DNA from: Phycisphaerales bacterium
Lineage (GTDB): Bacteria > Planctomycetota > Phycisphaerae > Phycisphaerales > JAGLTS01
Direction: 5' to 3'
NCBI GenBank assembly: GCA_023135165.1
Contig: JAGLTS010000005.1
Span: forward strand, 2,745 to 66,744
Length of the DNA: 64,000 bases
Shown here: piece after piece, positions 12,605 through 41,459 of the stretch
How positions within the stretch are numbered: the first letter of the stretch is position 1
How the letters are laid out: every line of letters begins with the position of its first letter
Made by a program: the position numbers and the translations under genes
Notes under the pieces: generated by a model
What the model saw: the letters and a program-made list of their open reading frames with translations, nothing else
The model's database searches: none
Told to the model about the DNA's origin: nothing

Positions 12605-12632
12605 GCAGCCTGTATCTCAAGTCACTCACAAG

Positions 12633-12664
12633 AACCCAGGGAGAATCTTCCCTGGGTTTTTCTT
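12633..12664 (+). terminator. intrinsic terminator of hppA
   Basis: 9-bp stem ACCCAGGGA / TCCCTGGGT, 6-nt loop, followed by TTTTTCTT. Confidence 0.85.
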
Positions 12665-12677
12665 CGTCACCACAGTC

Positions 12678-12952
12678 GTGATGAGATTGCCCATCCGCAC
12701 GCCCACCACACACGAGAGCGCGCCATCTCATCACAGTCAGCACACTTGCCCGGAGAACCTCGCCTTGCCAGGCGAGGCTGTGACGTGCGCGCAGCGGAGG
12801 AAATCCTAACCGAGTTCGTCACACATGAGATTGCATCATCCCATCACAGCCCCGCGTGGCAACGCGGGGTTCGCTTCCTGTGAGCGCACTTGCCCGAAGA
12901 ACCCCGCCTCGCCAAGCGCGGTTGTGATGTGCGCGCAGCGGATCAAACCGAG
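12678..12952. repeat. intergenic repeat region with two ~70-nt direct repeats and embedded hairpins
   Basis: Core 1 (12739-12813) is agcacacttgcccggagaacctcgccttgccaggcgaggctgtgacgtgcgcgcagcggag. Core 2 (12884-12952) is agcgcacttgcccgaagaaccccgcctcgccaagcgcggttgtgatgtgcgcgcagcggat. Hairpins: CCTCGCC-N6-GGCGAGG (12758-12777), CCCCGCG-N6-CGCGGGG (12850-12869), and a 10-bp inverted repeat GTGATGAGAT/ATCTCATCAC (12678-12687 / 12725-12734). Confidence 0.7.
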
Positions 12953-12988
12953 ACGACGCGGTGACCTGTTCGGATTCCATTGTGCTGT

Positions 12989-13570
12989 TCACGTACCGCT
13001 GAAGAGGCCGGCGAAGCCCATGAAGGCGAGCGACAGGATGCCGGCGATGATCATGTTCAATGCGGTGCCCTTCACCATTGCGGGCACGTTCGACAGCTCG
13101 ACTTCCTCGCGTAGACCCGCCATGAGGACGAGCGCGAGCGTGAACCCGCCGCCCGCACCAACCGCGAAGACCAGCCCCTCGATCACCGAGTAGTCCGCCT
13201 TGGTCTGCGAAATCGCCAGGTACAGGATCGCGCAGTTGGTCGTGATGAGCGGCAGGAAGATGCCCAGCGCGCGGAAGAGCGCCGGGCTGAGCTTTTTGAT
13301 GACCATCTCGACGAACTGCACGGTGCTGGCGATGACGACGATGAAGCTGATGAGGCGCAGGTACGGCGCATATGGCAGGATGAAAGCGTTGAGGAACGAG
13401 ACGCACAACGACGTAATGACCATGACGAAGATCGTCGCCAGGCCGAGGCGGAATGCGGTCTTGAGCCTGCCGGACACGCCGAAGAACGGGCACAGGCCGA
13501 GGAAATAGTACAGCGTGAAGTTGTTGACGAGCATCGCGCTGATGAAGATCCAGACGAGGTTGCTGTTCAT
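12989..13570 (-). CDS. rnfA: Rnf electron transport complex subunit A
   Basis: 193 aa. LVNNFTLYYFLGLCPFFGVS, LGIFLPLITTNCAIL and LSLAFMGFAGL closely follow the RnfA/RsxA pattern. 4-nt overlap with rnfE. Confidence 0.9.
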   Translation of the reverse strand: MNSNLVWIFISAMLVNNFTLYYFLGLCPFFGVSGRLKTAFRLGLATIFVMVITSLCVSFLNAFILPYAPYLRLISFIVVIASTVQFVEMVIKKLSPALFRALGIFLPLITTNCAILYLAISQTKADYSVIEGLVFAVGAGGGFTLALVLMAGLREEVELSNVPAMVKGTALNMIIAGILSLAFMGFAGLFSGT

Positions 13571-14217
13571 GATGCAGCCTCCTCTGAAACGCGGGTTCGC
13601 CTTCTGATCTTTCGTTCACGGAGGAAGCCGAAGAAGAGCAGGATCACGCCGAGCATGATGAACCCACCGGGCGGAAGCACCATGATGACCCACGGCTCGA
13701 AGTGTTCGCCGAAGAGCAAGTGCCCAAAGAGCGAACCCGAGCCGAGGATCTCGCGCGTCGCGCCAAGGCACAGCAGCGCAAACGCAAAGCCCGCCGCCAT
13801 ACCGATCGCATCGGCGACGGCGAGGCGCACGCTGTTCCTGCTCGCAAATGCTTCCTGCCGGCCGAGTATCAGACAGTTCACGACGATCAGCGCGATGAAC
13901 GCACCGAGTTCCTTATGCACGCTCGGCACGGCCGCCTTGAGCGTGAAGTCCGCGACGGTCACGAACGTGGCGATGATGATGATGTACGTGCTGATGCGAA
14001 CCTGCTTGGGAATAAACGACCTTAGCAGCGACACGAGAAAGCTGGACCCGATGAGCACGAACGCCGTCGCCGCGCCCATCGCCACAGCGTTGATCGCGCT
14101 GTTCGTCACGGCAAGCATCGGACACATGCCGAGCACCTGGACGAAGACAGGATTCTCCTTCCAAATGCCCTTGGCGAACTCGCGGTAGAGCCGACCCGGA
14201 TCGGGAGGTGTGTTCAT
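13567..14217 (-). CDS. rnfE: Rnf complex subunit E
   Basis: 216 aa. NPVFVQVLGMCPMLAVTNSAINAVAMG is typical of RnfE/RsxE. 4-nt overlaps on both sides. Confidence 0.9.
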   Translation of the reverse strand: MNTPPDPGRLYREFAKGIWKENPVFVQVLGMCPMLAVTNSAINAVAMGAATAFVLIGSSFLVSLLRSFIPKQVRISTYIIIIATFVTVADFTLKAAVPSVHKELGAFIALIVVNCLILGRQEAFASRNSVRLAVADAIGMAAGFAFALLCLGATREILGSGSLFGHLLFGEHFEPWVIMVLPPGGFIMLGVILLFFGFLRERKIRRRTRVSEEAAS

Positions 14218-14927
14218 CGCTCACCTCCCTGCTGCTCTTGCTCGGGCGCATCCGGTTCAGCCGGCGGCGCGGGGGGTTCTTCACCCGGGGGGGGGAGATC
14301 AGGTAGCCACGCCCCGGTCACCGTGTTGATGATCTTCACAACCGCCAGCGATGAAATCGTCGCACCGGTGATCGCATCAACCTCGTTGTCCGCATCCCGG
14401 CCGTCCTTAACAACGACGATCGGCGGCTCGACGCTGAGCGCCTCGAAGTTCGCCTGGAATGCTGCGTCCTTATAGATCTTGTCGCCCAGCCCGGGCGTCT
14501 CCCGGCTCTCGAGGATCTCCAGGCCGATGACGCACCGGCGAACCGGGTCGTAGCCGTAGAGCAGGCGAATGATGTCCTGGAAGCCCGATCCCGCACCTTC
14601 GATGGCATAGCCGAGAAAATCGCCCGCATCGTCATACGCGCCGTACACCACGGGGTCGGTGACGGGTTCATCACCAGCGACGGGAACGAGCAGGCCGTCA
14701 CGCAGCGCGAGCTTGCGCATTCGCGTCGAGCCGGGCACGACCTTGAACACGGCGGCTTCGAGCGCCCGTGCGTTGTTGGCGTCGATGATCGGTTTGGTGA
14801 TCTGATACGCGCCGGCAATCGCAAAGCCAGACAGCAGCCCCGCGATGCCGAGCGTCAACACGAGGCGCAGGCTGCTCGGCTGGCTGGGTTGCTGCCCTGC
14901 TGAGATGGTGAGCTGGACCTCGGTCAT
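14214..14927 (-). CDS. rnfG: Rnf complex subunit G (FMN-binding)
   Basis: 237 aa. N-terminal TM helix and the FMN-attachment-type motif VDAITGATISS. Pro/Glu-rich C-terminal tail. Confidence 0.85.
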   Translation of the reverse strand: MTEVQLTISAGQQPSQPSSLRLVLTLGIAGLLSGFAIAGAYQITKPIIDANNARALEAAVFKVVPGSTRMRKLALRDGLLVPVAGDEPVTDPVVYGAYDDAGDFLGYAIEGAGSGFQDIIRLLYGYDPVRRCVIGLEILESRETPGLGDKIYKDAAFQANFEALSVEPPIVVVKDGRDADNEVDAITGATISSLAVVKIINTVTGAWLPDLPPPGEEPPAPPAEPDAPEQEQQGGER

Positions 14928-15961
14928 GCCACAGCCCTCCCCCGGCCGAAGGCGCGCGGCTGCGCGATGCGCTCGATCAGCGGCGTCGCGGCGTTCATCA
15001 GGAGGATCGCGTACATCACGCCTTCAGGCAGCCCGCCCCAGATTCGGATGAGCACGACAAGCAGCCCGATGCCCAGGCCGAAGATCCAAGCACCGCGCGG
15101 CGTGATCGGCGATGTCACCGGGTCGGTCGCCATGTACACCGCGCCGAAGAGCAGCCCGCCCGAGCAGAGCATCAGCCAGGGCGACGGGTACTCCGTGCGA
15201 TCGAAGAGCCAGACGATCGTCGAGAAGACGGCGACGGTGCCGAGGATCGAAACAGGGATGCGCCAGTCGAACGTTCGACGGATGGCGAGAATGACGCCGC
15301 AGATGATGATGACGATCGCGCACGTCTCGCCGAGCGAGCCCGCGGTGTTGCCCAGCAGCAGTTGCTCGACGCCGGTCGGGATGTTCTGGAACTTCATGAG
15401 TCCAAGCGGCGTCGCGGCGCTGATCGCATCGACAGCGTCGGCAGCGGGAGCGGGCGCCTGCATGAAGGGCAGCGCGAAGTTGCTGGGACGGATCGTGAGC
15501 AGCTCGGTAATCGCGCCCTGCTGCGTCCACGTCGTGATGGCGGTGGGAAAGGCCGCCTGGAGGAAGGCCCGACCGACGAGCGCCGGGTTGAAGATGTTTT
15601 GGCCGAGTCCGCCGAAGACGAGTTTGCCAAGCCCGACGCCGACCGCGCCGCCGAGGAACGCCATCCACAACGCGATGCCCGGCGGCAGACACAAGCCCAG
15701 GAGCACGCCGGTGAGAATCGTGCTGCCATCTGTGAGCGATCCGCCGCGCCGCCGATCCGGGCCGAACACCCATTCCGTGAGCGCCGCGCCCGCCGTCGCC
15801 GCGACGATGACGAGGATCGCGCTCAGCCCGAAGAAGTACACCGCGGCGAGCACGACCGGCACAAGCGCGATGAGCACATCCACCATGAGGCGAGGCGTTG
15901 TGATACCGCGGCGAAGAAACGGCGCCGATTGCAGAAGCAGTCGTGGATCGCGCCGCGTCAT
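14924..15961 (-). CDS. rnfD: Rnf complex subunit D
   Basis: 345 aa from ATG at 15961, which forms an ATGA overlap with the rnfC stop (15958-15960). Polytopic membrane protein with the RnfD/NqrB-like pattern. The track start at 16069 is an over-extension. Confidence 0.88.
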   Translation of the reverse strand: MTRRDPRLLLQSAPFLRRGITTPRLMVDVLIALVPVVLAAVYFFGLSAILVIVAATAGAALTEWVFGPDRRRGGSLTDGSTILTGVLLGLCLPPGIALWMAFLGGAVGVGLGKLVFGGLGQNIFNPALVGRAFLQAAFPTAITTWTQQGAITELLTIRPSNFALPFMQAPAPAADAVDAISAATPLGLMKFQNIPTGVEQLLLGNTAGSLGETCAIVIIICGVILAIRRTFDWRIPVSILGTVAVFSTIVWLFDRTEYPSPWLMLCSGGLLFGAVYMATDPVTSPITPRGAWIFGLGIGLLVVLIRIWGGLPEGVMYAILLMNAATPLIERIAQPRAFGRGRAVA

Positions 15962-17292
15962 GATTCTTTGGCCTTTCGCGCTCGCATCATCCCTTTCGCA
16001 GCACGGATCAAATGCACGATCGGCACGCCGGATGGGCATGTGTACGTGCACGCGCCACACTCGACGCAATCCATGATGTGCGCCTTCTCAAGCTCATCGT
16101 ACCGACCCGCACTCGCGAGCCTGGCCAAGCGCGAGGGATTCAGGAAGTTGCCGCATGCTTCAAGGCACTGCCCGCAACGCACGCAGGCGTACTCCGCTGT
16201 GTGGTTGATGACATCCTCGGTGAACGCGAGCAGCCCACTTGTTCCCTTGAGCACGGGCACATCGAGCGATGCGAGCGACGTACCCATCATCGGCCCGCCC
16301 ATCACGACCTGCCGCGCCTGCGTGTTCAGCCCGCACCGGCGAAGCACATCGCGCACCGGCGTGCCGATGGGGACGATCAGGTTGGCCGGCCGATCAACGC
16401 CGGGCCCGGCGACGGTCAGCGCCCGCTCGATGACGGGGATGCCCCGGTCGAAGTAGTCCGCCAGCGCCGCCATCGTGCCGACGTTGTTGACGACGATGTT
16501 CAGGTCCAGAGGCAGTTTGCCTGCGGGCACTTCCTCGCCCCAGACCGCCTTGATGAGCATCTTCTCCGCACCCTGGGGGTACTTCACCTTGAGGGGCACG
16601 ATGTCGATGCTGCCCCGATCACCGACAGCCCGCCGAAGGGCCTCGATCGACTCGGGTTTGTTCAGTTCGACGCCGATTGTGGATGAGTCCGCGCCGAGCG
16701 TTTCAGCGAGGATCTCGACGCCGCGGATGATCGCATCCGGCTGTTCGACCATGAGGCGGTGGTCGCAGGTGAGGTAAGGCTCGCATTCGCAGCCGTTGAC
16801 GAGCAGTCGTTCGCAGCGATTACCCTCGGGCAGCTTGTACTTCACGTGCGCCGGAAACGCCGCCCCGCCCATGCCGACGAGGCCGGCCTGTTGAACATGC
16901 GTGATGAACTCATCGAGCGTGAGGGATCGCCAGTCCACCGGCGACGCGGCCGACATGCGTTGTGTTGAAAACGCATCGGCTTGGATTTCGATGGACTGGG
17001 CCATCTGTCCGTTCGGGTGCCTGCGCATCGCGATGGCGGCGACGGTTCCGTCGACGGGGCTGTGCAGCGCCATGGAGACGAAGCCGCCCGGCTCCGCGAT
17101 CAGTTGTCCTCGCGTAACGGTTTCGCCGACGGCGACGACGGACTTGCACGGCGCGCCGAGATGTTGGCTGAGCGGCAGGATGTATCTGTCCACGAAGCCC
17201 ATGCGCTCAAGCGCGAGATCCTCGGTGCCTTCTTTGTGCTCTCGCGGGTGCACGCCGTGCCGGAATGTTCTGCCGAGCACGCCCGCGGTCAT
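15958..17292 (-). CDS. rnfC: Rnf complex subunit C (NADH-binding, 2x[4Fe-4S])
   Basis: 444 aa. GMGGAAFPAHVKY and CVRCGQCLEACGNFL ... CVECGACTYTCPSGVPI. 4-nt overlap with the upstream giant ORF. Confidence 0.9.
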   Translation of the reverse strand: MTAGVLGRTFRHGVHPREHKEGTEDLALERMGFVDRYILPLSQHLGAPCKSVVAVGETVTRGQLIAEPGGFVSMALHSPVDGTVAAIAMRRHPNGQMAQSIEIQADAFSTQRMSAASPVDWRSLTLDEFITHVQQAGLVGMGGAAFPAHVKYKLPEGNRCERLLVNGCECEPYLTCDHRLMVEQPDAIIRGVEILAETLGADSSTIGVELNKPESIEALRRAVGDRGSIDIVPLKVKYPQGAEKMLIKAVWGEEVPAGKLPLDLNIVVNNVGTMAALADYFDRGIPVIERALTVAGPGVDRPANLIVPIGTPVRDVLRRCGLNTQARQVVMGGPMMGTSLASLDVPVLKGTSGLLAFTEDVINHTAEYACVRCGQCLEACGNFLNPSRLARLASAGRYDELEKAHIMDCVECGACTYTCPSGVPIVHLIRAAKGMMRARKAKES

Positions 17293-20200
17293 TCGGCGCC
17301 ACCTTCGCCCTGCTGCGCGGCCACCGGCGCGTAACCGGCCAGCGCCATGAGGCCGCTCGTCACGCGTTGGGCGGCCTGGGCGTCGTACTGCGCACGAAGC
17401 TCGGCGAGTTTCGTCTCGTACTCGCGTTTGAGCGTGGTGATCTCATCCTCGTGCGCCTGCGCCACATCGCGCTGAGCTTGTTCTCGCACGGCTTCCGTGA
17501 ACGGAGTGACGACGCCCGCCAGTTCCTGAAGCGTGCGCCAGAACTCAAGACGCCGTTGCACATCGCGCGCAAGTGTCGGGGCGACGCGCAGCGACATCCG
17601 TTCACCCTCGCGATCGACCGTGATGACCGGCATCGTTGCGACGCGATCATGCACGCTGAGCGAGAGGTAGTCGGTGATCGGCATCGGGGCTGGGTCGTTT
17701 GTCGTCAGCGGACGAAGGTGATCCGAGAAACGCGCTTCGGTGACAGCCCAATGCGCGGGCGTGATCGCAGCGCCGGCGTCGGTGTGCCAGCGTGATGTGA
17801 CATCCGGGTTGGCGGAGAGATCCAGCCGAGCGCCGAACACGCCGTCAGCCGATGGATCGTAGGTGAATAACGGGAACGCGCGCGATGCGACGGCAAGCTC
17901 CGCTTGGGCGATCAAGCGCTCAGGGGCGAAACCGTGGCGCTCCGGGCTGGGCGCATGGATGTGAACGAGCGCCGGACCGGTGAAGGCAAGCGCCCCGAGA
18001 ACGCTCTCGGCGAAATGCGCGCCGTCGGCAGGCGACACCTGCGTCACGAACGCGGTGCGTGAGAGCAACGCGAGCAGGGCGATGTCGAACCTTTCATCGG
18101 ATGCGTATGCGCCGAGCGATTCGACGCGGAGCGCATCATCCGCGCCGCCGCCGATGTCGCTGAGCAGAACGATCTTGATCGGCAGGTCGGTGCTGAGCAG
18201 CCCGATGAGTTGTGACAGGTTCTGACCGGCCAGCGACCGGCTGTCGCCGATGATGAGCATGGGCGGGCAGAGGCTTCGCTCCTCAAACGTGAGGTCGGCA
18301 TATCGCAGGCGCTTGAGGCTGTCAGCCATGCGCGCGGCGCTGTGCGGATCATCCAGTTCAACCTCAGCCCATCGCATGAGTCGCACGCCCGCGATCGCCT
18401 GTTCGAGTTGACCTTCGATCAGACCTCGCGCCAGTTCGCCCGCATCGCCGCCTGCGTCGATGACCACCGGGCTGAAGAACGGGTTGTGAGGGAAGACGCC
18501 CGCCCACGCAGCGACCGAGCCTGAGGCGATTGTGATGCCCGTTCGCGCCCGCCCAGCGCCGGTCGGACCTTGCGTAAGTTGCCAATGCAGGTCGGCCAGG
18601 CCTCGCGCTACTTCCACCAGGCGCGCCAGGCGATCACCATCCACGCGACCGGCTGTGACCGCATCGCCGACGGCGCCGGAGAGCGCCGCGAGATCCACTT
18701 CGCGTTTACCGAGTGATTCAAGCCCACCCGCCAAGGCGTCCAGATCATGCTCGGGAAGCGCGCCCGCAAGCACATCGTGGATGCGATCAGCAAGCTGTTT
18801 CTGCAGCGCTTCGATCCGCTGAAGATGCTCTTGCAGGCGAGGTTGAAGGTGATACTCGGCAGCAGCCATCACATGACGAAGGGCCAGGCGTGCGCCCGAG
18901 CAGGCTTCCGAGCCGTCGCCCGACGCCATCGCGAGCAGGCAGTGGCGCGAGAGCAGCATGGCGGCGAGCGGGCCGACATCGCGGTGCGTGCGAACGCGCT
19001 CGATCGTCGTGCCCGGCGTGTCGGGCAGGCGTTGCCAAAGACTCCACAGACGGCGCTGCATGTGCACAAGCTCGGGCGTCTTCGTGGCAGCACGCAGGCC
19101 TCGCCCCTTGCACGCATCAATGGCAGCGGTCGCGTTCTTGCACGCATCGGGATTGACGAGTAGCGAGAACAGTTCGCCCGTGCCGCGCGAGGCTCGCTCC
19201 GGCTCATCGAAGAAGATCGGCGTCCTCACCACGGGCAACTCGCCGACTTCATTGACGACCGCATCAAGCGCCGGCGCCAGCGTCGCCTTGCGAGGATCAA
19301 CACCGTCCTCTTTGTCCATCAGCGAATCGAATGCAGCGCGGAAAAGCTCGCCGGCTGTGGTCGGCGCGTCGGGGTACGCAGCGAGGATCCTGTTCACACG
19401 CCCAGCGATCTTGCCCGCGATGCTCCCAAGCACATCGACGGGCTTGCCCCTCTCGGACGCCATCGTGATGCCTGCATCAAGAAGCGCGCGGGCGGAGATG
19501 ACGAGCGGCGCGATCGAGCCGTCCGGGCAACTCGTCCATGACCGGCCATCGCCATCGCACGACTGCGGATCGAAGACCGGCAGCATCGCACTCGCATCGC
19601 TCACATCGCGGAACGTCGAGGAAAGGGGCGGAACCGCGCCGGCGGCAAGACACGGGTCGGCTGTGAGCTGGTCCACCTTGCCATCGCGGTAGAGCACGCC
19701 GACCTGATCCCAGAACCGGGGCAGCGATGCGACCGGCATGTCCGAATCGGTCAACTCGCGGACGGCGGGCGGTGCGGATGCCTCGCGCAGCCGGTCGTCA
19801 GCGGGCGGCAAAGGCATGTCGCCGGCTTCCACGCGCGTGATGGACTCGAAGGCAAGGTCGATCACATCGAGACGCCGATCACGCTCGGATTGTGACAGTT
19901 CCGCGAGCGCTTCTTCACGATTCGAGCGGATCTTGGCGGTGGTGATGCTTCCGGGCGCACGCATCGCGCCGTTGACCAGTGAGACAAGCCCTCCGAGCAG
20001 CGCTTCGTTGATATGCGACGCATCGCAATCGGCTGAGATCTGAACGATGTGGATGGCGACTCGACCGTTTGCAGCGTCGTCGCGGAGTTTCGCGGGCAGC
20101 GTGGGCCAAAGCTCATCCGAAGCCTTGTCGCTGACAAGAAGGACCGCGCCGCCATCCACCAGGCGCTGCGTTACCTCCATGCGCGGGTGAATGGCATCGG

Positions 20201-21914
20201 CTGCGATCACCGCGATGTTCACGGGCACGTCATCACCCGGATCAAGCAGCGGTGAGTCGGCGCAGGTGAACGTATCCGCGCACGGGTCGCCGAAACGTTG
20301 CCAAGTCAGGGCGGGACGACTGCGGAGATGACAACCGAGCACGCCCGCGATCATCGACGCGGCCTCGCCTGCGAATGTCTCATGCTCGCCGCCGGCTGCA
20401 CGATGGACTGCGACGGTGACAGCACCGTTCGGCCGAACATCCGGCGGCTGCTCGTCGCTGCGAAGGCCCAGCTCGCCGAGCCTGCCATCAGCGCGGCGCA
20501 GCGCGTCGATCACAGCCTGCTGTTTCGGATAGTCGCTGTGGTCGCGGATAAAGTTCAGGCCGAGGTGGATGCGGTCACGGTCCGGGTTCTTCAGCGCGTC
20601 GACGAGGGCGATGAGGTCAGCGGCGCGAAGCGGCAAGCCACCCATGCCGAAGGGGACGCTCACAAGCCTTGTGCGGGTTTCCCGCGCATGCAACGCGGCG
20701 CGCAGCTCGCGCATGAGCGGCGCATCACCGGCGAGCGGCGCGTCAAGACGTTCCAGAACCGCAACGACGCCGGTGCGACTCAACCGCTCGGCGATGATCG
20801 CACAGGGGAAGGGTCGCAGGCGCCTGACGCCGAGTACGCCCACTTGGGCACTGCCCTGCTCGCGCAACGAGTCGGCGACGGCGATCGCGGTTTCGACAGC
20901 CGATCCTTGCGCAACCAGAATGGTCTGTGCATCATCGAGCGCGTGTTCGAGAACCGGGCCGTAGCGCCGACCGGTCTGCTGGGCGAACTCATCGAATGCC
21001 TCGGACAAGAAGCGCTGAACGTGATCGGCGAAGTACACGCGCTGACTCGCCGCGCCAAGCGCCCAGGCCTCCGGGCCTTGCAACGGGCCGAGCATCATCG
21101 GGCGCTGCAGGTCATACATCCGAGGCACACGACGGCGCGTGTCGCCCAGAAGCATTCGCTGTGCATCGGTCGGCGGCTCGATGCGATCGGACGGCTGACC
21201 GAGGAATGACCGCAACAGCGTTTCGTCAGGCAACAGGACATCCTGCGCAGCGGTCGCCGTCTGCTCGCCATCCATTGCGACGATGCCGGGCACGAGGGCG
21301 CGTTCTGCGACGCGACGTGCGATGAGCGCGAAGTCCACCGCTTCCTGCACGCTCGTTGCGAAGAGTTGGAAGCAGCCGAAGTCCGCGACGGCGTGGTACG
21401 CCTCATGGCCGGTGCCGATCGCCTGTGCATGGCCGGGTTGCGCGCGGCAGGCCAGGTGCACGACGAGCGGGATGTGCGATCCCGCGGCTCGCCCGAGCAG
21501 GTCGCTGCCGGTCGTGATGTCGGGACCGGAGAGAAAGCACGCGGTGCGCCGGCCGGACATCGCCATGCCGAGCGCCGTCGCCAGTGCGGCGCGGGGGTCA
21601 TCGGCGCTCGCGCTGGTGAGCGGCCTGCCAAACTCGTTGACATCACGTCTCGCCTGCTGCTTGGCCCACGCCCGAGCGCCGACGGCTGCGGGGTACGTCG
21701 CGCCGAGGGCAGCGGATTCGCTGATCCGCGCTTCGGTGAAGGCAACCGCTGAAAGACCATCCAATACGACAGCCCGGCCGGCAGCGGCGAACTGGTCATC
21801 CGGCAGGCCTTGCAGGAGCCGACGAAGCAGTCGCAGTGATGAAGCGGCGAAACTAGTCAAGGTTCGCTCCCGTGACAGAGGCGGATGCGCGCGGACTGAA
21901 TTGGCTGAACTCAA
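17289..21914 (-). CDS. full-length pyruvate:ferredoxin oxidoreductase (PFOR/NifJ) homologue with degenerate cofactor sites plus C-terminal coiled coil
   Basis: Track ORF is 1541 aa and starts at a TTG overlapping rnfB by 62 nt. An alternative TTG at 21860 (about 1523 aa) overlaps only the rnfB stop. Collinear with PFOR domains I, II, III, V and VI (details in findings). The Fe-S Cys ligands and the GDG..NN ThDP motif are substituted. Confidence 0.8.
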   Translation of the reverse strand: MSSANSVRAHPPLSRERTLTSFAASSLRLLRRLLQGLPDDQFAAAGRAVVLDGLSAVAFTEARISESAALGATYPAAVGARAWAKQQARRDVNEFGRPLTSASADDPRAALATALGMAMSGRRTACFLSGPDITTGSDLLGRAAGSHIPLVVHLACRAQPGHAQAIGTGHEAYHAVADFGCFQLFATSVQEAVDFALIARRVAERALVPGIVAMDGEQTATAAQDVLLPDETLLRSFLGQPSDRIEPPTDAQRMLLGDTRRRVPRMYDLQRPMMLGPLQGPEAWALGAASQRVYFADHVQRFLSEAFDEFAQQTGRRYGPVLEHALDDAQTILVAQGSAVETAIAVADSLREQGSAQVGVLGVRRLRPFPCAIIAERLSRTGVVAVLERLDAPLAGDAPLMRELRAALHARETRTRLVSVPFGMGGLPLRAADLIALVDALKNPDRDRIHLGLNFIRDHSDYPKQQAVIDALRRADGRLGELGLRSDEQPPDVRPNGAVTVAVHRAAGGEHETFAGEAASMIAGVLGCHLRSRPALTWQRFGDPCADTFTCADSPLLDPGDDVPVNIAVIAADAIHPRMEVTQRLVDGGAVLLVSDKASDELWPTLPAKLRDDAANGRVAIHIVQISADCDASHINEALLGGLVSLVNGAMRAPGSITTAKIRSNREEALAELSQSERDRRLDVIDLAFESITRVEAGDMPLPPADDRLREASAPPAVRELTDSDMPVASLPRFWDQVGVLYRDGKVDQLTADPCLAAGAVPPLSSTFRDVSDASAMLPVFDPQSCDGDGRSWTSCPDGSIAPLVISARALLDAGITMASERGKPVDVLGSIAGKIAGRVNRILAAYPDAPTTAGELFRAAFDSLMDKEDGVDPRKATLAPALDAVVNEVGELPVVRTPIFFDEPERASRGTGELFSLLVNPDACKNATAAIDACKGRGLRAATKTPELVHMQRRLWSLWQRLPDTPGTTIERVRTHRDVGPLAAMLLSRHCLLAMASGDGSEACSGARLALRHVMAAAEYHLQPRLQEHLQRIEALQKQLADRIHDVLAGALPEHDLDALAGGLESLGKREVDLAALSGAVGDAVTAGRVDGDRLARLVEVARGLADLHWQLTQGPTGAGRARTGITIASGSVAAWAGVFPHNPFFSPVVIDAGGDAGELARGLIEGQLEQAIAGVRLMRWAEVELDDPHSAARMADSLKRLRYADLTFEERSLCPPMLIIGDSRSLAGQNLSQLIGLLSTDLPIKIVLLSDIGGGADDALRVESLGAYASDERFDIALLALLSRTAFVTQVSPADGAHFAESVLGALAFTGPALVHIHAPSPERHGFAPERLIAQAELAVASRAFPLFTYDPSADGVFGARLDLSANPDVTSRWHTDAGAAITPAHWAVTEARFSDHLRPLTTNDPAPMPITDYLSLSVHDRVATMPVITVDREGERMSLRVAPTLARDVQRRLEFWRTLQELAGVVTPFTEAVREQAQRDVAQAHEDEITTLKREYETKLAELRAQYDAQAAQRVTSGLMALAGYAPVAAQQGEGGAE

Positions 21915-22704
21915 CCCACTGGATCGCGCCGGTCGGACAACGATACGTCGCTTCCGGCGCAGCTGGCCCGCCCGCTGCGTAGTCCACGACAGGCAGGTTG
22001 TCCTTCATCTGAATCAACCCCGGCGCCGCATCTTGAGCACATCGGCTGCATCCGTCACACGCGACGCGGCAGATCGCACGGGCCTGCTCACCTTCGAGCG
22101 GGATCTTGCACTGCACGATCAGGCAATGCGAGATCGGCAAGCATTCGAAGAGGTCGCGCGGACAGGCGTCAACACAGTCCCCGCATGCGGTGCATTTGTC
22201 AGGTTCAACGACGGGCAGCCTCTCATCGTTCATGTGGATGGCGTCGAACGTGCACGCGACCATGCAATCGTCGAGGCCGAGGCAGCCCCACGCGCATCCC
22301 TTGCCGCCGCCTCCAATCATGTGCGCCGCCAGACATGTCTTGAAGCCCTCGTACTCGGCGATCTGCCGGGCCTGGCTCAAACCGCCCGCACAATGCAGAC
22401 GCGCCACGCGTTTCTCCTGCTTGCCTGCATCCACGCCGAGGAACGCCGCGATGTATTCGATCCCCTCCGGACTGGAGACGGTGCACGCGCTCGGCGCGTG
22501 CGCGCCGTCGATGACCGTCTCAGCGAAGGCGCGACAGCCCGCCTCGCCACACGCGCCGCAGTTCGAGCCGGGCAACATCTCTTCGATGATGTCGATCCGT
22601 GGATCCTCCTCGACCCGCAGGAAACGGTTCGCCACCGCCAGACCGATCCCGAAGAATACCCCCAGCCCGGTCATGATCGCTGTGGCCAGGAGCAGGGTGA
22701 GCAC
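21853..22704 (-). CDS. rnfB: Rnf complex subunit B (polyferredoxin)
   Basis: 283 aa. N-terminal TM helix, CGACGEAGCRAFAE cluster motif, then several CxxCxxCxxxCP-type motifs (CTACGDCVDACP and others). Confidence 0.88.
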   Translation of the reverse strand: MLTLLLATAIMTGLGVFFGIGLAVANRFLRVEEDPRIDIIEEMLPGSNCGACGEAGCRAFAETVIDGAHAPSACTVSSPEGIEYIAAFLGVDAGKQEKRVARLHCAGGLSQARQIAEYEGFKTCLAAHMIGGGGKGCAWGCLGLDDCMVACTFDAIHMNDERLPVVEPDKCTACGDCVDACPRDLFECLPISHCLIVQCKIPLEGEQARAICRVACDGCSRCAQDAAPGLIQMKDNLPVVDYAAGGPAAPEATYRCPTGAIQWVEFSQFSPRASASVTGANLD

Positions 22705-22748: not shown

Positions 22749-25367
22749 TCAGTTAAACGGCTTGGCTCGGGCGATAAGCTCGTCCAGCTTCGGCTCATCG
22801 GGGTTGAGCGGCTTGCCTGGATGGATACATCGGCTGGGACATTTCTCCGCTGCCCGGACGATCTGGTCGAACGTGCCCGCCCGTGCGTCGCCGATGACCG
22901 CCTGCTTGCTCGCGTTGTAGACGAAGACCTGCGGGTTGATATCCATGCAGTCGTTGCAGGTCGTGCAGAGGATGCTGGTGATCCACGGCTCGTCCGGGCC
23001 GTCATCGTCATCCGTTTCGGATTCGGCAGGCGCTTGAGCCTGCTCAGCGTCGTCGGCCTGCGCCTGGGCAGCATCAGGAGAAGCCGGGGCGATCCCCGGG
23101 GCGCCGTACGCCCCGGCCAGCGGCGCGAGCTGATTCACATCGACGCCCAGCAGCGACTGCGCCAGACGCTCCATGACCTCACTCGCCGCTTCGCTTCGCA
23201 CCGTTTCGATCTCGGCTGCGTGCGCCTCCTCAAGCTGTTGGCGCTGAGCTTCCGCCTCCGCCGTGAGGCGTTCCCTCTCCTGCTCAACGGCGGCGCGAAC
23301 ATACTCGCTACGCACACCCGCCAGTTCCTGAAGCGTGCGCCAGTACCTGAGGCGGTCGCGACAGGCAAACGCTAGGCGGCGTGTAATGACGAGGCGGTGG
23401 AGTTGCCCATCACCATCGATCGCCCAGACGTACGGAACTCGCGACAGCGCTTCGTCGGCCGGCAGCGCGAGGTACGCATCAACTGTGATGAACTCGTCGC
23501 CGCAACATGCCGGAGGGATGACGCGGTAGTGATCTCGATAGCGAGGTTCGGCAAGACCGAAGTCAGCGAAGGTGAAGGCAACCGTCATGACCTGCTCTTC
23601 ACCGGCCGGGGTGCGGCAGGGGAGGTCGTAGACGGGCCAGTCCTCGTCCGCTTGGGGGTTGCCTGAGAAATCCAGCCGGCGTGCCCAGGAGGTGCCCGCT
23701 TCGGGGTTGTAGTGGAAGAACGGATGCGCCCGGCCTTCGATGGCGGCTCCGCCGTGGAGGTACGTGCCGAGCGGCGGGTGCTCACCATCCATGAGCAGTC
23801 CAGATGCGGCGACATGCAACGATGTGCGCGTCGCGTCAAGGCTTCGCAGGAAGCCGTCGAGCAGGTGTTCCGGGCGAGCAGCGGAGGATTGATTCACCAG
23901 GGCTTCGCGATGGCTGACGCCCATGTAACCAAGCTCGAAACGGTAGCCCAGCAGCGGATCACCTTCCGATGGGAGTCCGACGTTCATCGCGGCACGAACC
24001 GACACGATCACGTCAATCGGCCGGGCGGAAAGGAGGACTCTTGACAGGCAGAGCATGCCTGAGCCTCCCATGTGCTCGACCGATTCAGTCGCCAGGATGG
24101 GCGGCAGGCTGAGCAGTTCCTCACGCGAGAAGGCTTCCCAGTCGAACGCTTCGAGCAGCGGGTCGTGACGAAGCGGCTCGTAGGCGTTTGCGAGTTCCAG
24201 CTCCGCGACGCGCATCGCGCCGAAGAGCCTCGCATAGTGCTCCGCCACCCGATCAAACACCTCCGCCGCCGCGGCGCAGGCCGCCTCGTCGCCTGCTTGC
24301 CTCCACTCAACGTCGTCCGCAGAACTCTCTGCCGGGGTCCGTTCATGGTGAACCACGATGAGCAGGCTCTGATCCTCGCGCGCCAGGAACTTCTCGAAAA
24401 GCCCGATGCCGTTCACGACGCGCCGGCGACGGTCCGGGTCCATCGGCATGACGCCGCGCGATGGGCCGAGCACGTGCGCCAGCGCCGCGGGATCGACGTG
24501 CGATGCGCCGGCTGTCCCGACCATTCGCAGCATGACACCGACCTGGCGCCCCTCGGGGGTCTTGCCCAACTCGATGAGGAGCAAATCGTGGAGCTTGGTG
24601 CGAAGGTCACTCACCTTGTCGCGCAGCGCAGCACGGCGTGGGATCGCGCGGTGCCGGGCAGCGTGCAGGAACAGGTGCAGGGGTGCGTGCATGCCAAGGG
24701 CGAGTAGCCGCCCTCCCCGGGGCATTGCATCCTGGAGCCTCGCTAGGTCATCACGCAGTTGCCCGGCGCCTTCCTCGCTGAGGGCCAGCTCATCGACGGT
24801 GCTTTGCCCCGCCTGATCGATCGCCTCCGAGGCGCTGACGGGCGCATCGACGCTCCTGATCGCTTCCCGCACGTGTCTTTCGAGCCGGTGGAGGTTGTCC
24901 TTGAGGATGCGGGCATCCTCCGATTCCGGCGCCATGCGATCGACGACTTCACTGAGCAAATCGGACAGGGGAATGAACAGCCGATCGTCCTCCACCGAAT
25001 CCAGCGGCCGAAGAAAAAGCGGGTACTCATGCCGAACAGCACCGGCATCGCGAAAAGGATGCAGCAGAGCCGGGATGCAATCATCACCTGGCGTCCGGAG
25101 CGCACCGGCTTCACCCGGATCACCTCGATGGAACCGCCGAATGGCGTGGAGGCATTCGGCGACCTGCTTTTCCGAGACATCCGCGGGAGGCGTGGGCAGG
25201 ACGGGCAGGACGCTCCGCACGCCGGCTCGCTCGGCACGATCTCGCATCGTGTCGGCCCAGTCCGAGAGCGTGTCATCAGGCCCCTCAGCCGGCGGGATCA
25301 TCTCGCCCTGGACGAGTTCGCCGGCTGCATCGCTGGCCGTCGCCGTGCTTTCGTCAGTGTTCTGCAT
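22749..25367 (-). CDS. large hypothetical protein: unknown N-terminal half + degenerate PFOR-domain-VI-like core + coiled coil + C-terminal single-cluster ferredoxin domain
   Basis: 872 aa. ATG at 25367 follows AGGAA, 9 nt after the korB stop. HPFFHYNPEAGTSWARRLDFSGNPQADEDWP resembles the PFOR C-terminal region. YWRTLQELAGV is shared with the 1541-aa ORF. The C-terminus ILCTTCNDCMDINPQVF ... AAEKCPSRCIHPG is ferredoxin-like. Confidence 0.75.
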   Translation of the reverse strand: MQNTDESTATASDAAGELVQGEMIPPAEGPDDTLSDWADTMRDRAERAGVRSVLPVLPTPPADVSEKQVAECLHAIRRFHRGDPGEAGALRTPGDDCIPALLHPFRDAGAVRHEYPLFLRPLDSVEDDRLFIPLSDLLSEVVDRMAPESEDARILKDNLHRLERHVREAIRSVDAPVSASEAIDQAGQSTVDELALSEEGAGQLRDDLARLQDAMPRGGRLLALGMHAPLHLFLHAARHRAIPRRAALRDKVSDLRTKLHDLLLIELGKTPEGRQVGVMLRMVGTAGASHVDPAALAHVLGPSRGVMPMDPDRRRRVVNGIGLFEKFLAREDQSLLIVVHHERTPAESSADDVEWRQAGDEAACAAAAEVFDRVAEHYARLFGAMRVAELELANAYEPLRHDPLLEAFDWEAFSREELLSLPPILATESVEHMGGSGMLCLSRVLLSARPIDVIVSVRAAMNVGLPSEGDPLLGYRFELGYMGVSHREALVNQSSAARPEHLLDGFLRSLDATRTSLHVAASGLLMDGEHPPLGTYLHGGAAIEGRAHPFFHYNPEAGTSWARRLDFSGNPQADEDWPVYDLPCRTPAGEEQVMTVAFTFADFGLAEPRYRDHYRVIPPACCGDEFITVDAYLALPADEALSRVPYVWAIDGDGQLHRLVITRRLAFACRDRLRYWRTLQELAGVRSEYVRAAVEQERERLTAEAEAQRQQLEEAHAAEIETVRSEAASEVMERLAQSLLGVDVNQLAPLAGAYGAPGIAPASPDAAQAQADDAEQAQAPAESETDDDDGPDEPWITSILCTTCNDCMDINPQVFVYNASKQAVIGDARAGTFDQIVRAAEKCPSRCIHPGKPLNPDEPKLDELIARAKPFN

Positions 25368-25376
25368 GGTTTCCTA

Positions 25377-26330
25377 TCAGATCGCGAAACGATCGAGTTC
25401 CCGATTGAGCCCGGCGATTCTCTCCTCGGTCGTCATCTCCATCCCGATTGTCGTGACCTGTTCGTACCTGGGCCGACTCTCATTCTGGAAGAAGATGCCG
25501 ATGGGGAGCAAATCCTCCCGGCCGGCGAGGGCGACGGCCTCGTTGTGATTCAGCGGGTCGTGCGCCATCTGATGCTCGTACATCCCCGCCACCGCAGGAT
25601 CCAGTTGGATGCCGTTCTCGTGATTGAGCAGAAGGATCGTCGACGGGTCCTGCTGCATCGCCTCGTAGATCTTCGCGGTGTACTGCGGACAACGCTGGTG
25701 GATGTGGACGAAGCTGAATCCCTTGTGCTTGAACGCGGCATCGAGCGTCGCATGCAGGTGAACGGGGTTCCAATCGACGGTCTTGGCGACAAATGAAACA
25801 TTGGTGAAGCCGAGCGTGGCGAGCGTGGGGTTGAGCGGGGGCAACCACGCGCCGAAGGGGTGGGTGTTGGTCCGCTGACCGGGCCTGCTCGTCGGAGAGG
25901 TTTGCGCCTTGGTCAGGCCGTAGATGTTGTTGTCGAACAGCATCACGGTCATGTCCATGTTGTAGCGTACGGCGTGCAGCCAGTGCCCGGCGCCGATGGA
26001 GCAGCAGTCGCCGTCTCCGGTGGCGACCCACACATGCAGATCCGGGCGTCGCGCCTTGACGCCACAGGCCACGGGAAGCGCCCTCCCGTGCAGGCCGTGA
26101 AACCCGTAGGTCTTCATGTAGTGCGGGAATCGACTCGAACAGCCGATGCCGGAGACGATGATTGTCTTCTCAGGCAGAAGTTGCTCGTCGCGGCAGATCC
26201 GCTGCACGGCGGCGAGGACGGCATGATCCCCACAACCGGGGCACCACCGCGCGATCGCGCCCTCGTAGTCCTCAAGCGTGAAGTAACGGGGGAGAACATC
26301 CAACGACCAGTCTTTTTTTAGCCCGAACAT
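25377..26330 (-). CDS. korB: 2-oxoacid (2-oxoglutarate):ferredoxin oxidoreductase beta subunit
   Basis: 317 aa. WCPGCGDH, GIGCSSRF, and an intact ThDP motif GDGDCCSIGAGHWLHAVRYNMDMTVMLFDNNIYGLT. Confidence 0.88.
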   Translation of the reverse strand: MFGLKKDWSLDVLPRYFTLEDYEGAIARWCPGCGDHAVLAAVQRICRDEQLLPEKTIIVSGIGCSSRFPHYMKTYGFHGLHGRALPVACGVKARRPDLHVWVATGDGDCCSIGAGHWLHAVRYNMDMTVMLFDNNIYGLTKAQTSPTSRPGQRTNTHPFGAWLPPLNPTLATLGFTNVSFVAKTVDWNPVHLHATLDAAFKHKGFSFVHIHQRCPQYTAKIYEAMQQDPSTILLLNHENGIQLDPAVAGMYEHQMAHDPLNHNEAVALAGREDLLPIGIFFQNESRPRYEQVTTIGMEMTTEERIAGLNRELDRFAI

Positions 26331-28270
26331 GATTCGCTCCCCATCGCAGCTTCGACCGGCTGCGGCTCGTTCCCAGTGAGGCCCATACCGTGCAGCCGAT
26401 CCATGATGACTTCATGGATCTGCCCCGGCCGCAAGGGTAGGCCCTGGCAGATGGACCAGTAGTCAATGTCGCGCCTCGTCCTGCCTCGCAACATCAGGGC
26501 GAGATGCGGCGGCCGACCGGGCTGCGTCTCCATCATCAGCCCGTGCTGCGGGTCGCTGTAGTTCAGCTCAATCGTCATCACCTTGTCGAACCGCATGAAG
26601 ATGTCGCGCAGGCCCGGTTCGAGAGGCCAAAGGAAGCGTATGTGCAGCGAAGAGACGCGATACCCGTCCGCACGCGCCCGATCGACCGCCTCCTCGATTG
26701 AGCCGAGCGTCGAGCCCCAGCCGACGACGATCAGATCGCCTTCGTCGTCCCCGTGGATCTTCGGCGGCTTGAGCGTGGCCCGCAGTGCGGCGAGCTTGCG
26801 GCTGCGCATCTCCAGGCCCTTGATGTTCGATGCGGGGTCGTAGGCGACTTTGCTCTGACCGGTGTGCGCCAGGCCCGTCAGGACGTACTCGCCGCCGCGC
26901 TGACCTGGGATCGGCCGGGGCGAAAGACCCGTCTCTTCATCCCAGTCGTACGGCGGGACGCCCTGCTTCCACGGCGACTGATCGACCGGCGGCGCGAGCC
27001 ATTCCTCGCACGGCTCGGGCCTGGGAATCGGCTGAACGCCCGTCGCCAACCCGGCGTCGGTCAGCACGATGACCGGCGTGCGGAAGGCCTCGGCAATCGT
27101 CCGTGCGGTGATGATCAGATGGAAGCACTCCTCGATCGTGGCGGCGGCGATGATCGGTTTGGGCGAATCCCCCGGCGAGCCGTACATCGCTGCCATGAGG
27201 TCGCCCTGCTCGGGCTTGGTGGGCAGGCCGGTCGAAGGGCCGCCACGCTGCACATCCACGATGACCAACGGAATCTCTCCCATGACTGCCAGACCGATGA
27301 ACTCCATCTTCAGCGCCAACCCCGGGCCGGAAGTGATCGTGCATGCCGTCTTCCCCGCGTAGGAGCAGCCGATCGCGAATCCGACAGCGGCGATCTCATC
27401 CTCCGCCTGGTGGACGAACCCGCCCACGCTCTGAATGGATGCCGCCAAGTAGTGCGAAGCGCTCGTGGCGGGCGTGATGGGGTACATCGACACCATCTCG
27501 ATGCCCGCAGCCATGACGCCCAGGCCGACCGCCTGGTTCCCGTTCATCACGAGCAGTTCGTGATCCACATCCATGCAAGGAACGTTGAAGCAGTACGTGA
27601 GACGCTCACGCGCGAACTCGACGCCCGCCTGCATGAGCTTCTGATTCAACGAAATGACCTGCTCGCCCTTCTTGCTGAAGATCGCAGCGATCTCCCCCAG
27701 CGTCATCTCAACATCGCGCTGATAAATCCAGCAGAGCATGCCGAGCACGAACATGTTTTTGCCGAGTTTCGGGTTCTCGGTGTGCGCCAGACATGCCTCT
27801 TCCATCGCCAGTTCATGGACGACGAAACCGCGGTCATGGAAATCCGCGACGCCATCCGCGTACGCCTGACGTATCTGTGGCGATGGATCGTTCGCCCACT
27901 TGTTCTCAAGCAAGACGACCGTGCCTTCGTGGTAGGCGCCCTGCCCGATTCGGCCGTAGAGCACCTGCTCGTTGAAGGCGACGACAAGGTCGGCTGCATC
28001 ACCCATGTTGGTGATTTCGTGATCGCCGAGTCGGATGCGGATGCCGCTGGCCCCGTCGCGGGATCGGGAAGGCGGCTTGATTTCAGCGGGAATGATCTCA
28101 ACGGTCCACGCGCCGTTTCCCATCTTGGCGCTGACGGTGCCGAACGTGACACCGCACTTCTGCGCGCCCTCGCCGGAGTCGCTGACAATCTCGACGATGT
28201 GTTCGTGAACCATCGTCGAGTGTTCATCGCGCGGTGCGCCGGGGTGCGAGTTACCGTCTTGTTTGGCCAT
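26318..28270 (-). CDS. korA: 2-oxoacid (2-oxoglutarate):ferredoxin oxidoreductase alpha subunit (gamma-alpha fusion type)
   Basis: About 650 aa from ATG at 28270 (GGAGAG 7 nt upstream; the track start at 28285 is a TTG). SDSGEGAQKCG gamma-type N-terminus and the pyrimidine-binding region YPITPATSASHYL. Confidence 0.88.
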   Translation of the reverse strand: MAKQDGNSHPGAPRDEHSTMVHEHIVEIVSDSGEGAQKCGVTFGTVSAKMGNGAWTVEIIPAEIKPPSRSRDGASGIRIRLGDHEITNMGDAADLVVAFNEQVLYGRIGQGAYHEGTVVLLENKWANDPSPQIRQAYADGVADFHDRGFVVHELAMEEACLAHTENPKLGKNMFVLGMLCWIYQRDVEMTLGEIAAIFSKKGEQVISLNQKLMQAGVEFARERLTYCFNVPCMDVDHELLVMNGNQAVGLGVMAAGIEMVSMYPITPATSASHYLAASIQSVGGFVHQAEDEIAAVGFAIGCSYAGKTACTITSGPGLALKMEFIGLAVMGEIPLVIVDVQRGGPSTGLPTKPEQGDLMAAMYGSPGDSPKPIIAAATIEECFHLIITARTIAEAFRTPVIVLTDAGLATGVQPIPRPEPCEEWLAPPVDQSPWKQGVPPYDWDEETGLSPRPIPGQRGGEYVLTGLAHTGQSKVAYDPASNIKGLEMRSRKLAALRATLKPPKIHGDDEGDLIVVGWGSTLGSIEEAVDRARADGYRVSSLHIRFLWPLEPGLRDIFMRFDKVMTIELNYSDPQHGLMMETQPGRPPHLALMLRGRTRRDIDYWSICQGLPLRPGQIHEVIMDRLHGMGLTGNEPQPVEAAMGSESCSG

Positions 28271-28631
28271 TGGAACGCTCTCCAAGTGAGAAGAGACACG
28301 GGTCGATTCGCCTTGCGCTGGTTTCAGAACCGCATACCAGCCGCTGGATGAGAATCGGCCAATAACTCAGTTGTCGTGAGCTTGTCCGGGCAGGCGCCTC
28401 GACAAAGGAGCGGAGCTTGAACAGACACATCACGCCGCCTCGATCGCCCGGTTTCGCGGCGCCTCGGAGCGAGCGACAAACGAGCGTTGTACTTCAACCG
28501 CAGCACGCCCGCCAGTGGTTAGACGTAAGGGAAGACACACAAATGTGAAGAGCGCCAATCGGCGGACGACGCATACGGCACAGCCGCATCCTGAATGGAA
28601 CGGCTGACGTGCCTGTGTTATCAGCCCTTGG

Positions 28632-38683: not shown

Positions 38684-38771
38684 CCCACCCCCACGACACC
38701 ACGACGTTGAGCGCGGCGAAATCCGCTCCGGCGGACCCCCACTTCCAACACACGCGAGGAGATCGCTCACG

Positions 38772-41459
<2,688 letters not shown>

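Follow-up and report, generated by a model that had tools for sequence, protein, structure and literature searches.

The window analysed here, a stretch of 64,000 nucleotides (nt) from a Phycisphaerales bacterium (contig JAGLTS010000005.1), contains an operon in which genes for a 2-oxoacid oxidoreductase and for the Rnf complex are combined with genes for two very large proteins derived from pyruvate:ferredoxin oxidoreductase (PFOR). The ten co-directional genes, all on the minus strand, are arranged in the order korA, korB, T872, rnfB, P1541, rnfC, rnfD, rnfG, rnfE and rnfA, where T872, the subject of this work, denotes the 872-amino-acid (aa) product of the gene at 22749..25367, and P1541 denotes the product of the 1541-aa open reading frame (ORF) located two genes downstream, at 17289..21914. 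The gaps between the genes are small or the genes overlap; the ATG start codon of T872 lies 9 nt past the stop codon of korB, and 44 nt separate T872 from rnfB.

An earlier note on this DNA, prepared without database searches, had placed the KorAB and RnfB genes on either side of T872, and both were found there with Pfam and NCBIfam profiles. The korA gene (26318..28285) encodes the alpha subunit of a 2-oxoacid:acceptor oxidoreductase with fused gamma and alpha portions, which is recognized by TIGR03710 (500 bits, cutoff 482.75) and by the Pfam domains POR, POR_N and PFOR_II, and korB (25377..26330) encodes the beta subunit, assigned by Pfam, NCBIfam and inspection of its motifs, which are intact (CPGC, GDGD...DNNIYG and four Cys). 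Judging from these motifs, KorAB is the only catalytically intact 2-oxoacid enzyme of the operon. It is of the two-subunit 2-oxoglutarate:ferredoxin oxidoreductase (OGOR) type; such enzymes have a single cluster and no built-in ferredoxin domain, and need an external small ferredoxin. In this case, the presumed ferredoxin partner forms one domain within a large scaffold protein, the product of the next gene downstream. RnfB, the ferredoxin entry point of Rnf, is of the long multi-cluster type with an N-terminal transmembrane helix (21853..22704; Pfam, NCBIfam). The block from rnfC to rnfA (12989..17292) comprises rnfC (15958-17292), rnfD (14924-16069), rnfG (14214-14927) and rnfE (13567-14217), all identified by Pfam, and rnfA (193 aa, 12989-13570). 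All six canonical subunits of the complex (RnfABCDGE) are encoded separately, and no Rnf domain of Pfam or NCBIfam is found in T872. Unlike the usual Rnf loci, this one is headed by korAB and has two PFOR-derived genes interleaved, one before rnfB and the other between rnfB and rnfC.

Domain layout of T872

The database entry identical to T872 is annotated "ferredoxin [Phycisphaerales bacterium]", and the only Pfam domain detected in the protein is Fer4_13 (residues 800-849, 28.8 bits, cutoff 24.5). The remainder was delineated by alignment of 83 relatives, by profile comparison and with an AlphaFold model of the monomer (pLDDT 79.7, pTM 0.71). Residues 1-94 (25086..25367) form a variable, partly disordered N-terminal tail (pLDDT below 50 at residues 1-32), which ranges from 3 to 246 aa among the relatives, has 38% gaps in the alignment and includes a conserved RRFH motif. 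Residues 95-384 (24216..25085), delimited by the hhalign match to residues 758-1155 of P1541, correspond to a remnant of PFOR domain V and the helical N-terminal part of domain VI; no cluster Cys are present in this segment, and LGMHAPLHL stands in place of the proximal-cluster motif GDGxCxGCGE. The core of domain VI, the PP fold that binds thiamine pyrophosphate (TPP) in PFOR, occupies residues 385-560 (23688..24215; BLASTP, Foldseek and alignment). Here, GDG is replaced by ESV and the YSNTGGQ loop is gone, a PFOR-type motif, EGRAHPFFHYNPEAG, is found at the end, and the majority-residue frequency is 0.70. A beta-rich C-terminal extension common to the long-PFOR clade follows (residues 561-686, 23310..23687; alignments and model) and ends with WRTLQELAG.

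Beyond this motif, the model consists of one long helix (688-741), a disordered stretch (742-789), a compact ferredoxin and a short terminal helix. The helix segment (residues 687-741, 23145..23309; hhalign and model) is exactly 55 residues long in 83/83 relatives and is paralogous to the C-terminal helix of P1541. The Ala/Glu/Pro-rich linker that follows (residues 742-789, 23001..23144; pLDDT below 50) varies from 36 to 62 aa and is the least conserved segment, with a majority-residue frequency of 0.38. The most conserved segments are the mono-cluster ferredoxin domain (residues 790-851, 22815..23000; Pfam and alignments; 0.76) and the 21-residue tail KPLNPDEPxLDELIxRAKPFN (residues 852-872 and the stop codon, 22749..22814; 0.74), in which P853, P856, E858, L864 and A868 are invariant among 22 orthologues. 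This tail is a possible docking peptide. Every peptide quoted in the earlier note was located in T872 or P1541.

PFOR ancestry and loss of the catalytic motifs

The tails of T872 and P1541 had been suggested to be paralogous, with the N-terminal ~400 residues of T872 considered unrecognizable. The similarity of the tails is significant (T872 385-758 against P1541 1180-1539, BLASTP E=7e-26, 26% identity), but the relationship extends much further. In a profile comparison of 22 T872 orthologues with 16 P1541 relatives, residues 95-742 of T872 align with residues 758-1525 of P1541 (hhalign E=5e-53, 629 columns; coding region 17340..19643), so that the N-terminal half is recognizable from residue ~95 onward. 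Nearly the whole of T872, and with it the N-terminal portion of ~400 residues, thus duplicates the second half of P1541.

To trace the connection to PFOR, this paralogue, a fold search and an intermediate from the long-PFOR clade were needed, because sequence searches of the PDB with T872 or with the orthologue profile retrieved a match for the ferredoxin only and did not reach PFOR. The intermediate, P0041, is a genuine long PFOR of 1477 aa that is complete in its PFOR domains, gives a Pfam match to TPP_enzyme_C and is not encoded in an rnf context; T872 matches it over 335 residues (BLASTP E=3e-42, 32% identity), and the domain V remnant yields a weak collinear BLASTP match to its residues 995-1047. 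When the T872 model was used as a Foldseek query, the top PDB matches were PFOR 6cin (E=6e-5), PorB 9bt4_C and the oxalate oxidoreductase beta subunit, with TM-target values of 0.43-0.47. The resemblance to PFOR, which the earlier note had proposed subject to statistical support, is thus backed both by the BLASTP match to a PFOR with the TPP motif and by the fold search, which together identify the PP-domain fold (domain VI or beta subunit) in T872. The core fold is shared with PFOR (D. africanus 1B0P, M. thermoacetica 6CIN) and with the beta subunits of 2-oxoacid:ferredoxin oxidoreductases (OFORs; M. acetivorans PorB 9BT4_C, oxalate oxidoreductase beta 5EXD), and the PFOR motif (A/G)xPxFxY(N/D)P at the end of domain VI is retained. 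T872 is the C-terminal half, that is, the domain V remnant, domain VI, the extension and the helix, of a PFOR-like protein.

In contrast to PFOR and the OFOR beta subunits, T872 lacks the TPP/Mg motif, the ligands of the proximal [4Fe-4S] cluster and domains I-III, and adds the beta-rich extension, the 55-residue helix, the linker and the C-terminal ferredoxin. The absence of the GDG motif from domain VI had been noticed before and is evident in the pairwise alignment, where GGDG...DTQVYSNTGGQ of P0041 is matched by TESV...VRAAMNVGLP of T872, with a gap of ~18 residues just past the motif. The pattern GDG-X(24-27)-N, which defines the TPP/Mg2+ site, does not occur in T872, the position of the Mg-binding Asp is taken by Ser, Thr or Ala in 67 of the 83 relatives, and TPP_enzyme_C is not detected in T872 by Pfam. 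None of the proximal-cluster Cys are present at the CxGC or later positions, C669 being the only conserved Cys of the body. Relative to P1541, the protein begins only at about residue ~758 and therefore has no PYR domain (domain I); domain III, which binds CoA, is missing as well. With no TPP motif, no Cys for a proximal cluster and no domain I, T872 is a pseudoenzyme, a non-catalytic, N-terminally truncated PFOR-like paralogue in which neither TPP nor a proximal cluster can be bound.

A similar loss is apparent in P1541. Domains I and II of this protein are recognizable (Pfam POR_N and PFOR_II), and it matches solved PFORs and oxalate oxidoreductase; its database copy begins 18 codons later. 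The catalytic Glu (EGEH is changed to DDPR, with Pro in place of Glu) is lost from P1541 and its entire family, together with the TPP motif and the Cys of the proximal cluster. The two clusters of domain V, with eight Cys, are kept in the gammaproteobacterial P1541 orthologues and were lost in the Phycisphaerae clade to which the window belongs, where the cluster sites now read CDGDGRSWTSCPD and CKNATAAIDAC; no protein of the T872 type has these two clusters. P1541 thus resembles T872 in the loss of the TPP motif and proximal cluster, in the WRTLQELAG motif and long helix at its end and in the common operon, and differs from it in keeping domains I-III and lacking a terminal ferredoxin. Proteins of the P1541 type are annotated as "4Fe-4S binding protein" or "pyruvate-ferredoxin/flavodoxin oxidoreductase" (Thiomargarita, Thiodiazotropha, Chromatiaceae), and annotations or metabolic models that count P1541 as a pyruvate oxidoreductase are probably wrong.

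Given these losses, we give hardly any credence to an active thiamine-dependent oxidoreductase in which T872 would be the divergent beta subunit and domain I of P1541 its partner. The fold of domain VI and the many conserved residues would be compatible with activity, but the Mg/TPP motif is replaced and its loop shortened, the proximal-cluster Cys are missing, and the would-be partner is itself devoid of the catalytic Glu. Moreover, the conserved motifs of T872 are those common to genuine PFORs, and are therefore interpreted as structural.

Both genes also share an identical string of 27 nt, which the earlier note had pointed out together with the peptide (Y/F)WRTLQELAGV common to both proteins. 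Exact matching confirms that the string occurs twice in the window (17515-17541 and 23317-23343), against 0 occurrences in shuffled sequences by expectation, and it encodes WRTLQELAG, preceded by Tyr or Phe, in both genes. An assembly artefact can be dismissed: apart from the string, identity between the two genes is ~26%, and orthologues specific to each one are present in more than 50 genomes. The string spans exactly the nine-residue peptide that is the most conserved one common to the two paralogues, and identity immediately outside it drops to the background of ~35% (9-17 of 30 nt on both sides). Probably, it reflects a codon coincidence or a micro-conversion, and nothing in the sequence comparison points to a function. 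It seems unlikely that the string marks a gene conversion of recent date or acts as a nucleotide element with a function, as opposed to codon coincidence: the longest exact string shared by the paralogues in ~50 other genomes measures 11-16 nt (median 13), and the probability of agreement at all eight degenerate codons, given an identical peptide and with the rare Leu codon CTT among them, is ~1e-3, but the flanks are at background identity on both sides, the string coincides precisely with the most conserved common peptide, and so short a tract without flanking homology is atypical for conversion.

Distribution, gene order and origin of the family

A scan of one genome per GTDB species identified T872 relatives in 467 GTDB species. 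The locus analysis covers the best 80 of these 467 relatives, and 82 loci from Planctomycetota and Gammaproteobacteria were included in the synteny count. At the best 80 loci, the relatives are 40-57% identical to T872 over residues ~50-872, and the hosts are Phycisphaerales, other Planctomycetota and many sulfur-oxidizing Gammaproteobacteria, namely Thiodiazotropha, Thiomargarita, Parabeggiatoa, Sedimenticola, Thiosymbion, Achromatium, Woeseiaceae, Thiohalomonadaceae, Chromatiaceae and the symbionts of Escarpia and Lamellibrachia. The family is found mostly in sulfur-oxidizing Gammaproteobacteria, including symbionts of tubeworms and lucinids, and the neighbour-joining tree places the Planctomycetota clade apart from the gammaproteobacterial one. 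A word-indexed protein search had suggested that the family is confined to Planctomycetota, which was overturned by the genome scan and a profile search. Two loci assigned to "uncultured Enterobacterales" (L026 and L027, from co-assembly bins) carry the full operon and fall within the Planctomycetota clade of the tree, probably due to a binning or taxonomy error.

Gene neighborhoods were compared using tblastn with the proteins of the window, and the counts refer to loci with enough flanking sequence. KorB is encoded immediately upstream of T872 in 59/73 loci and within 3.5 kb in 5 more, RnfB immediately downstream in 57/73, the pseudo-PFOR downstream in 49/59 and RnfC downstream in 44/58. The order korA-korB-T872-rnfB-pseudoPFOR-rnfCDGEA is largely conserved across the two phyla.

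The origin of the two large proteins is illuminated by locus L087, where the slot of T872 is occupied by a full-length, ferredoxin-bearing pseudo-PFOR of 1355 aa (10001-14068), accompanied by a second one of 1402 aa. Full-length versions of the T872 family (1300-1565 aa; L087, P0251, P0258, P0262, P0225 and others) consist of degenerate POR_N and PFOR_II domains followed by the ferredoxin tail, and they probably represent the ancestral state of the T872 slot. Interpretation of these 1300-1565-aa relatives as KorA/KorB fusions was rejected on the basis of the Pfam matches. Because a full-length ferredoxin-bearing paralogue is encoded in the same operon slot in L087, the two pseudo-PFORs are likely to have originated as a duplicated pair of full-length proteins, one of which later lost domains I-III.

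Several loci deviate from this layout or contain additional genes. At one locus of the planctomycetal type (L002, 12553-12619), the pseudo-PFOR gene comes after T872 with no rnfB in between, and rnfCDGEA follow as usual. A gene for a hemerythrin-domain protein directly precedes korA in two distant loci (L003, 6677-7075; L087, 6154-6624), in the second of which a gene for ApbE, the flavin transferase for Rnf, is also found upstream; these neighbors may hint that the operon is controlled by oxygen or redox state. Another gene, whose product has an FMN-binding domain distantly (26%) similar to RnfC/Nuo51, is found a short way upstream of korA, at ~5-6.5 kb of the respective loci, in tubeworm symbionts, Sedimenticola and Thiohalomonadaceae (L066, L075, L076, L083, L036, L045, L054 and L079). 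An 858-aa ORF that neighbors T872 in a locus without korB (L016), with an 855-aa counterpart in another (L023), was considered as a relative of T872 and discarded, the hhalign probability being 0.1%.

Within the window, a 266-aa ORF at 12819-13619 (-) was initially a candidate for rnfA. It has no Pfam match and is an alternative frame of the actual rnfA (12989-13570 (-)); its tblastn matches of 40-56% in other genomes are explained by the conservation of the rnfA DNA, which illustrates that a frame overlapping a conserved, GC-rich membrane gene may itself seem conserved. Convergent with the end of the rnf operon is the gene for an H+/Na+-translocating membrane pyrophosphatase (915 aa, 9857-12604 (+)), a second ion pump beside Rnf. 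The genes for isocitrate dehydrogenase and aconitase, at 2898-4184 (-) and 38595-41459 (+), are located less than 25 kb from korAB, which places the 2-oxoglutarate-forming branch of the tricarboxylic acid (TCA) cycle in a loose cluster with the kor-rnf operon.

The tethered ferredoxin and its proposed role

The C-terminal CxxCxxC...CP pattern had been read in the earlier note as a small ferredoxin, with conservation of the Cys as a check on this reading. The Fer4_13 match exceeds the Pfam gathering cutoff, the ligand pattern is complete, and the predicted ligands C801, C804, C807 and C843 are invariant in 22/22 orthologues that were collected by a word search independent of the Cys. In an unbiased, exhaustive profile search, the four Cys are kept in 133/134 ferredoxin-bearing cluster representatives. 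C847 was considered as a fifth ligand and rejected, as it is replaced by Ile, Ala or Val in many relatives. Among solved structures, the nearest relative is D. africanus ferredoxin I (1FXR/1DAX), found with the orthologue profile at E=1.6e-5, which shares with the T872 domain the CxxCxxC...C(P) pattern, the length and the motif CPxxCIH. Thus, the C-terminal domain of T872 can be predicted to hold a [4Fe-4S] cluster. Mono-cluster ferredoxins of this type are substrates of OFORs. The D. africanus protein is free and diffusible, whereas the T872 ferredoxin is fused to a carrier of ~790 residues and followed by the conserved 21-residue tail. Relatives without the ferredoxin (P0236, P0237, P0240, P0243, P0252, P0264, P0284, P0291, P0294, P0306 and P0309) end in the linker and a short acidic amphipathic motif (for example, ANELMKLIDPEDL and AEKLLELIDPDRLEE), which resembles the LDELIxRA portion of the T872 tail and may be a common docking peptide. 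The one contig inspected among them, L089, which carries P0240, is short.

On balance, we consider it probable, if by no great measure, that T872 is a tethered ferredoxin that carries electrons between the intact KorAB and Rnf on a PFOR-derived scaffold. A swinging carrier fits the observations because the mono-cluster ferredoxin is encoded between korB and rnfB and is mounted on a helix and a flexible linker. From the PFOR-derived body, the rigid 55-residue helix (~80 Å) and the flexible Ala/Glu/Pro linker of ~48 residues would extend the [4Fe-4S] ferredoxin, which could then swing between KorB and RnfB. The two pseudo-PFOR bodies would serve as a scaffold that holds donor and acceptor within arm's reach; this is plausible because they descend from a dimeric enzyme, PFORs being dimers, and have the terminal helix in common. 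The resulting path would be reversible and would connect, in this order, 2-oxoglutarate, the KorB cluster, the tethered ferredoxin, RnfB, Rnf and NAD(H), with ion translocation. We infer cluster binding, physical association and the electron path with its direction. By analogy only, the arm may be compared to the lipoyl domains of 2-oxoacid dehydrogenase E2, where a small cofactor domain is attached through a flexible Ala/Pro/Glu-rich linker to a structural core within a 2-oxoacid-oxidizing system; the T872 arm is non-homologous to these, would carry an Fe-S cluster instead of lipoate, and its movement between sites is a proposal. The idea of a built-in carrier between KorAB and RnfB was already put forward in the earlier note, and it has since gained support from the synteny across phyla and from co-regulation with korAB in Endoriftia; the role itself stays conjectural.

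The expression data come from Endoriftia, the Riftia symbiont, in which KorA(3), KorB(3) and a "PFOR-like ferredoxin" have the consecutive locus tags RS16060, RS16065 and RS16070, are well expressed and fall jointly under sulfide limitation (log2 -2.6, -2.6 and -1.9; PMC11636981 and its supplement). Presumably, this ferredoxin is the T872 orthologue, as suggested by the gene position and by synteny in the tubeworm symbionts L066, L075, L076 and L083. The co-regulation documented in that study is with korAB, and the linkage to korB is the tightest of all (64/73 loci within 3.5 kb) and outlasts the relocation of rnfB and P1541 in the Thiorhodococcus and Thiomargarita/Parabeggiatoa loci. These facts are also what would be expected if T872 were a private ferredoxin subunit of KorAB alone, delivering to any acceptor and acting as a functional substitute for the delta/domain-V ferredoxin module, which is missing from two-subunit OGORs, with Rnf merely co-transcribed for ferredoxin recycling and no Kor-Rnf assembly. 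This possibility is judged rather unlikely, since it leaves unexplained both the second pseudo-PFOR encoded between rnfB and rnfC in most genomes and the homologous terminal helix kept by both paralogues.

Several points weigh against the proposed carrier between KorAB and Rnf. T872 does not adjoin korB or rnfB in ~12-22% of the loci with enough flank, mainly those of Beggiatoaceae and Thiorhodococcus, in which the cluster is split, although korAB usually still lies beside T872. The contact of T872 with KorAB, RnfB or P1541 is deduced from gene linkage, KorAB and Rnf could work just as well with free ferredoxins, and the direction of electron flow is not readable from the sequence. The Cys conservation in loci L007-L086 is partly due to ascertainment, as the scan patterns included the Cys. 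Finally, the ferredoxin is missing from ~11 of the 147 representative relatives, in which the C-terminus is a different tail, acidic and amphipathic; these relatives keep the body, which therefore has a role independent of the ferredoxin. Their existence would agree with the ferredoxin domain being a redox or oxygen sensor, or an assembly or protection factor for KorAB/Rnf, with a body that binds a metabolite such as CoA or acyl-CoA. Pseudoenzymes often turn into regulators, and the hemerythrin genes that directly precede the operon in L003 and L087 point in the same direction, but this explanation is quite improbable: the ferredoxin is of the D. africanus ferredoxin I mono-cluster type, the long flexible tether suits shuttling better than sensing, and the CoA-binding domain III is absent from T872.

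An extension of the carrier proposal, for which our confidence is low, is that the products of all ten genes form a single membrane-bound, ion-translocating 2-oxoglutarate:NAD+ oxidoreductase, where a heterodimer of the pseudo-PFORs bolts KorAB to Rnf and the tethered ferredoxin carries every electron, with no free ferredoxin pool. If such a supercomplex exists, its forward run would amount to ion pumping at the 2-oxoglutarate step of the TCA cycle, and its backward run would let the membrane potential drive CO2 fixation at OGOR in sulfur-oxidizing symbionts. The isocitrate dehydrogenase and aconitase genes of the window fit an oxidative use in this Phycisphaerales genome, and a reverse, gradient-driven use is attractive for autotrophic sulfur oxidizers.

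A full-text literature search found no functional description of the T872 family, the sole mention being the label "PFOR-like ferredoxin" in the Endoriftia transcriptome table, and in a 2025 review of Rnf and Nqr the terms PFOR, oxoglutarate, accessory and additional subunit do not occur. The family is widespread, unnamed, noticed once in passing and not unique to the source genome. New in this work are the full domain assignment, the pseudoenzyme status of both large proteins, their likely origin as a duplicated pair, the putative swinging-arm anatomy and the conservation of the operon across phyla.

The kor-rnf pseudo-PFOR operon bears on both bioenergetics and symbiont physiology. Rnf is the main bacterial route that links low-potential ferredoxin electrons to NADH and membrane potential, and the wiring of ferredoxin-dependent enzymes to it is usually left to the diffusion of free ferredoxin. 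The operon described here, found in Phycisphaerae and in sulfur-oxidizing Gammaproteobacteria that include symbionts of tubeworms, lucinids and nematodes as well as giant sulfur bacteria, suggests hard-wiring with recycled parts of PFOR. If true, this would account for genes labelled "ferredoxin", "hypothetical" or "pyruvate-flavodoxin oxidoreductase", would correct the metabolic reconstructions that treat the ~1500-aa protein as a working PFOR, and would provide a testable mechanism for the supply of low-potential electrons to OGOR, or for their removal from it, in organisms for which it is disputed which way the TCA cycle runs.

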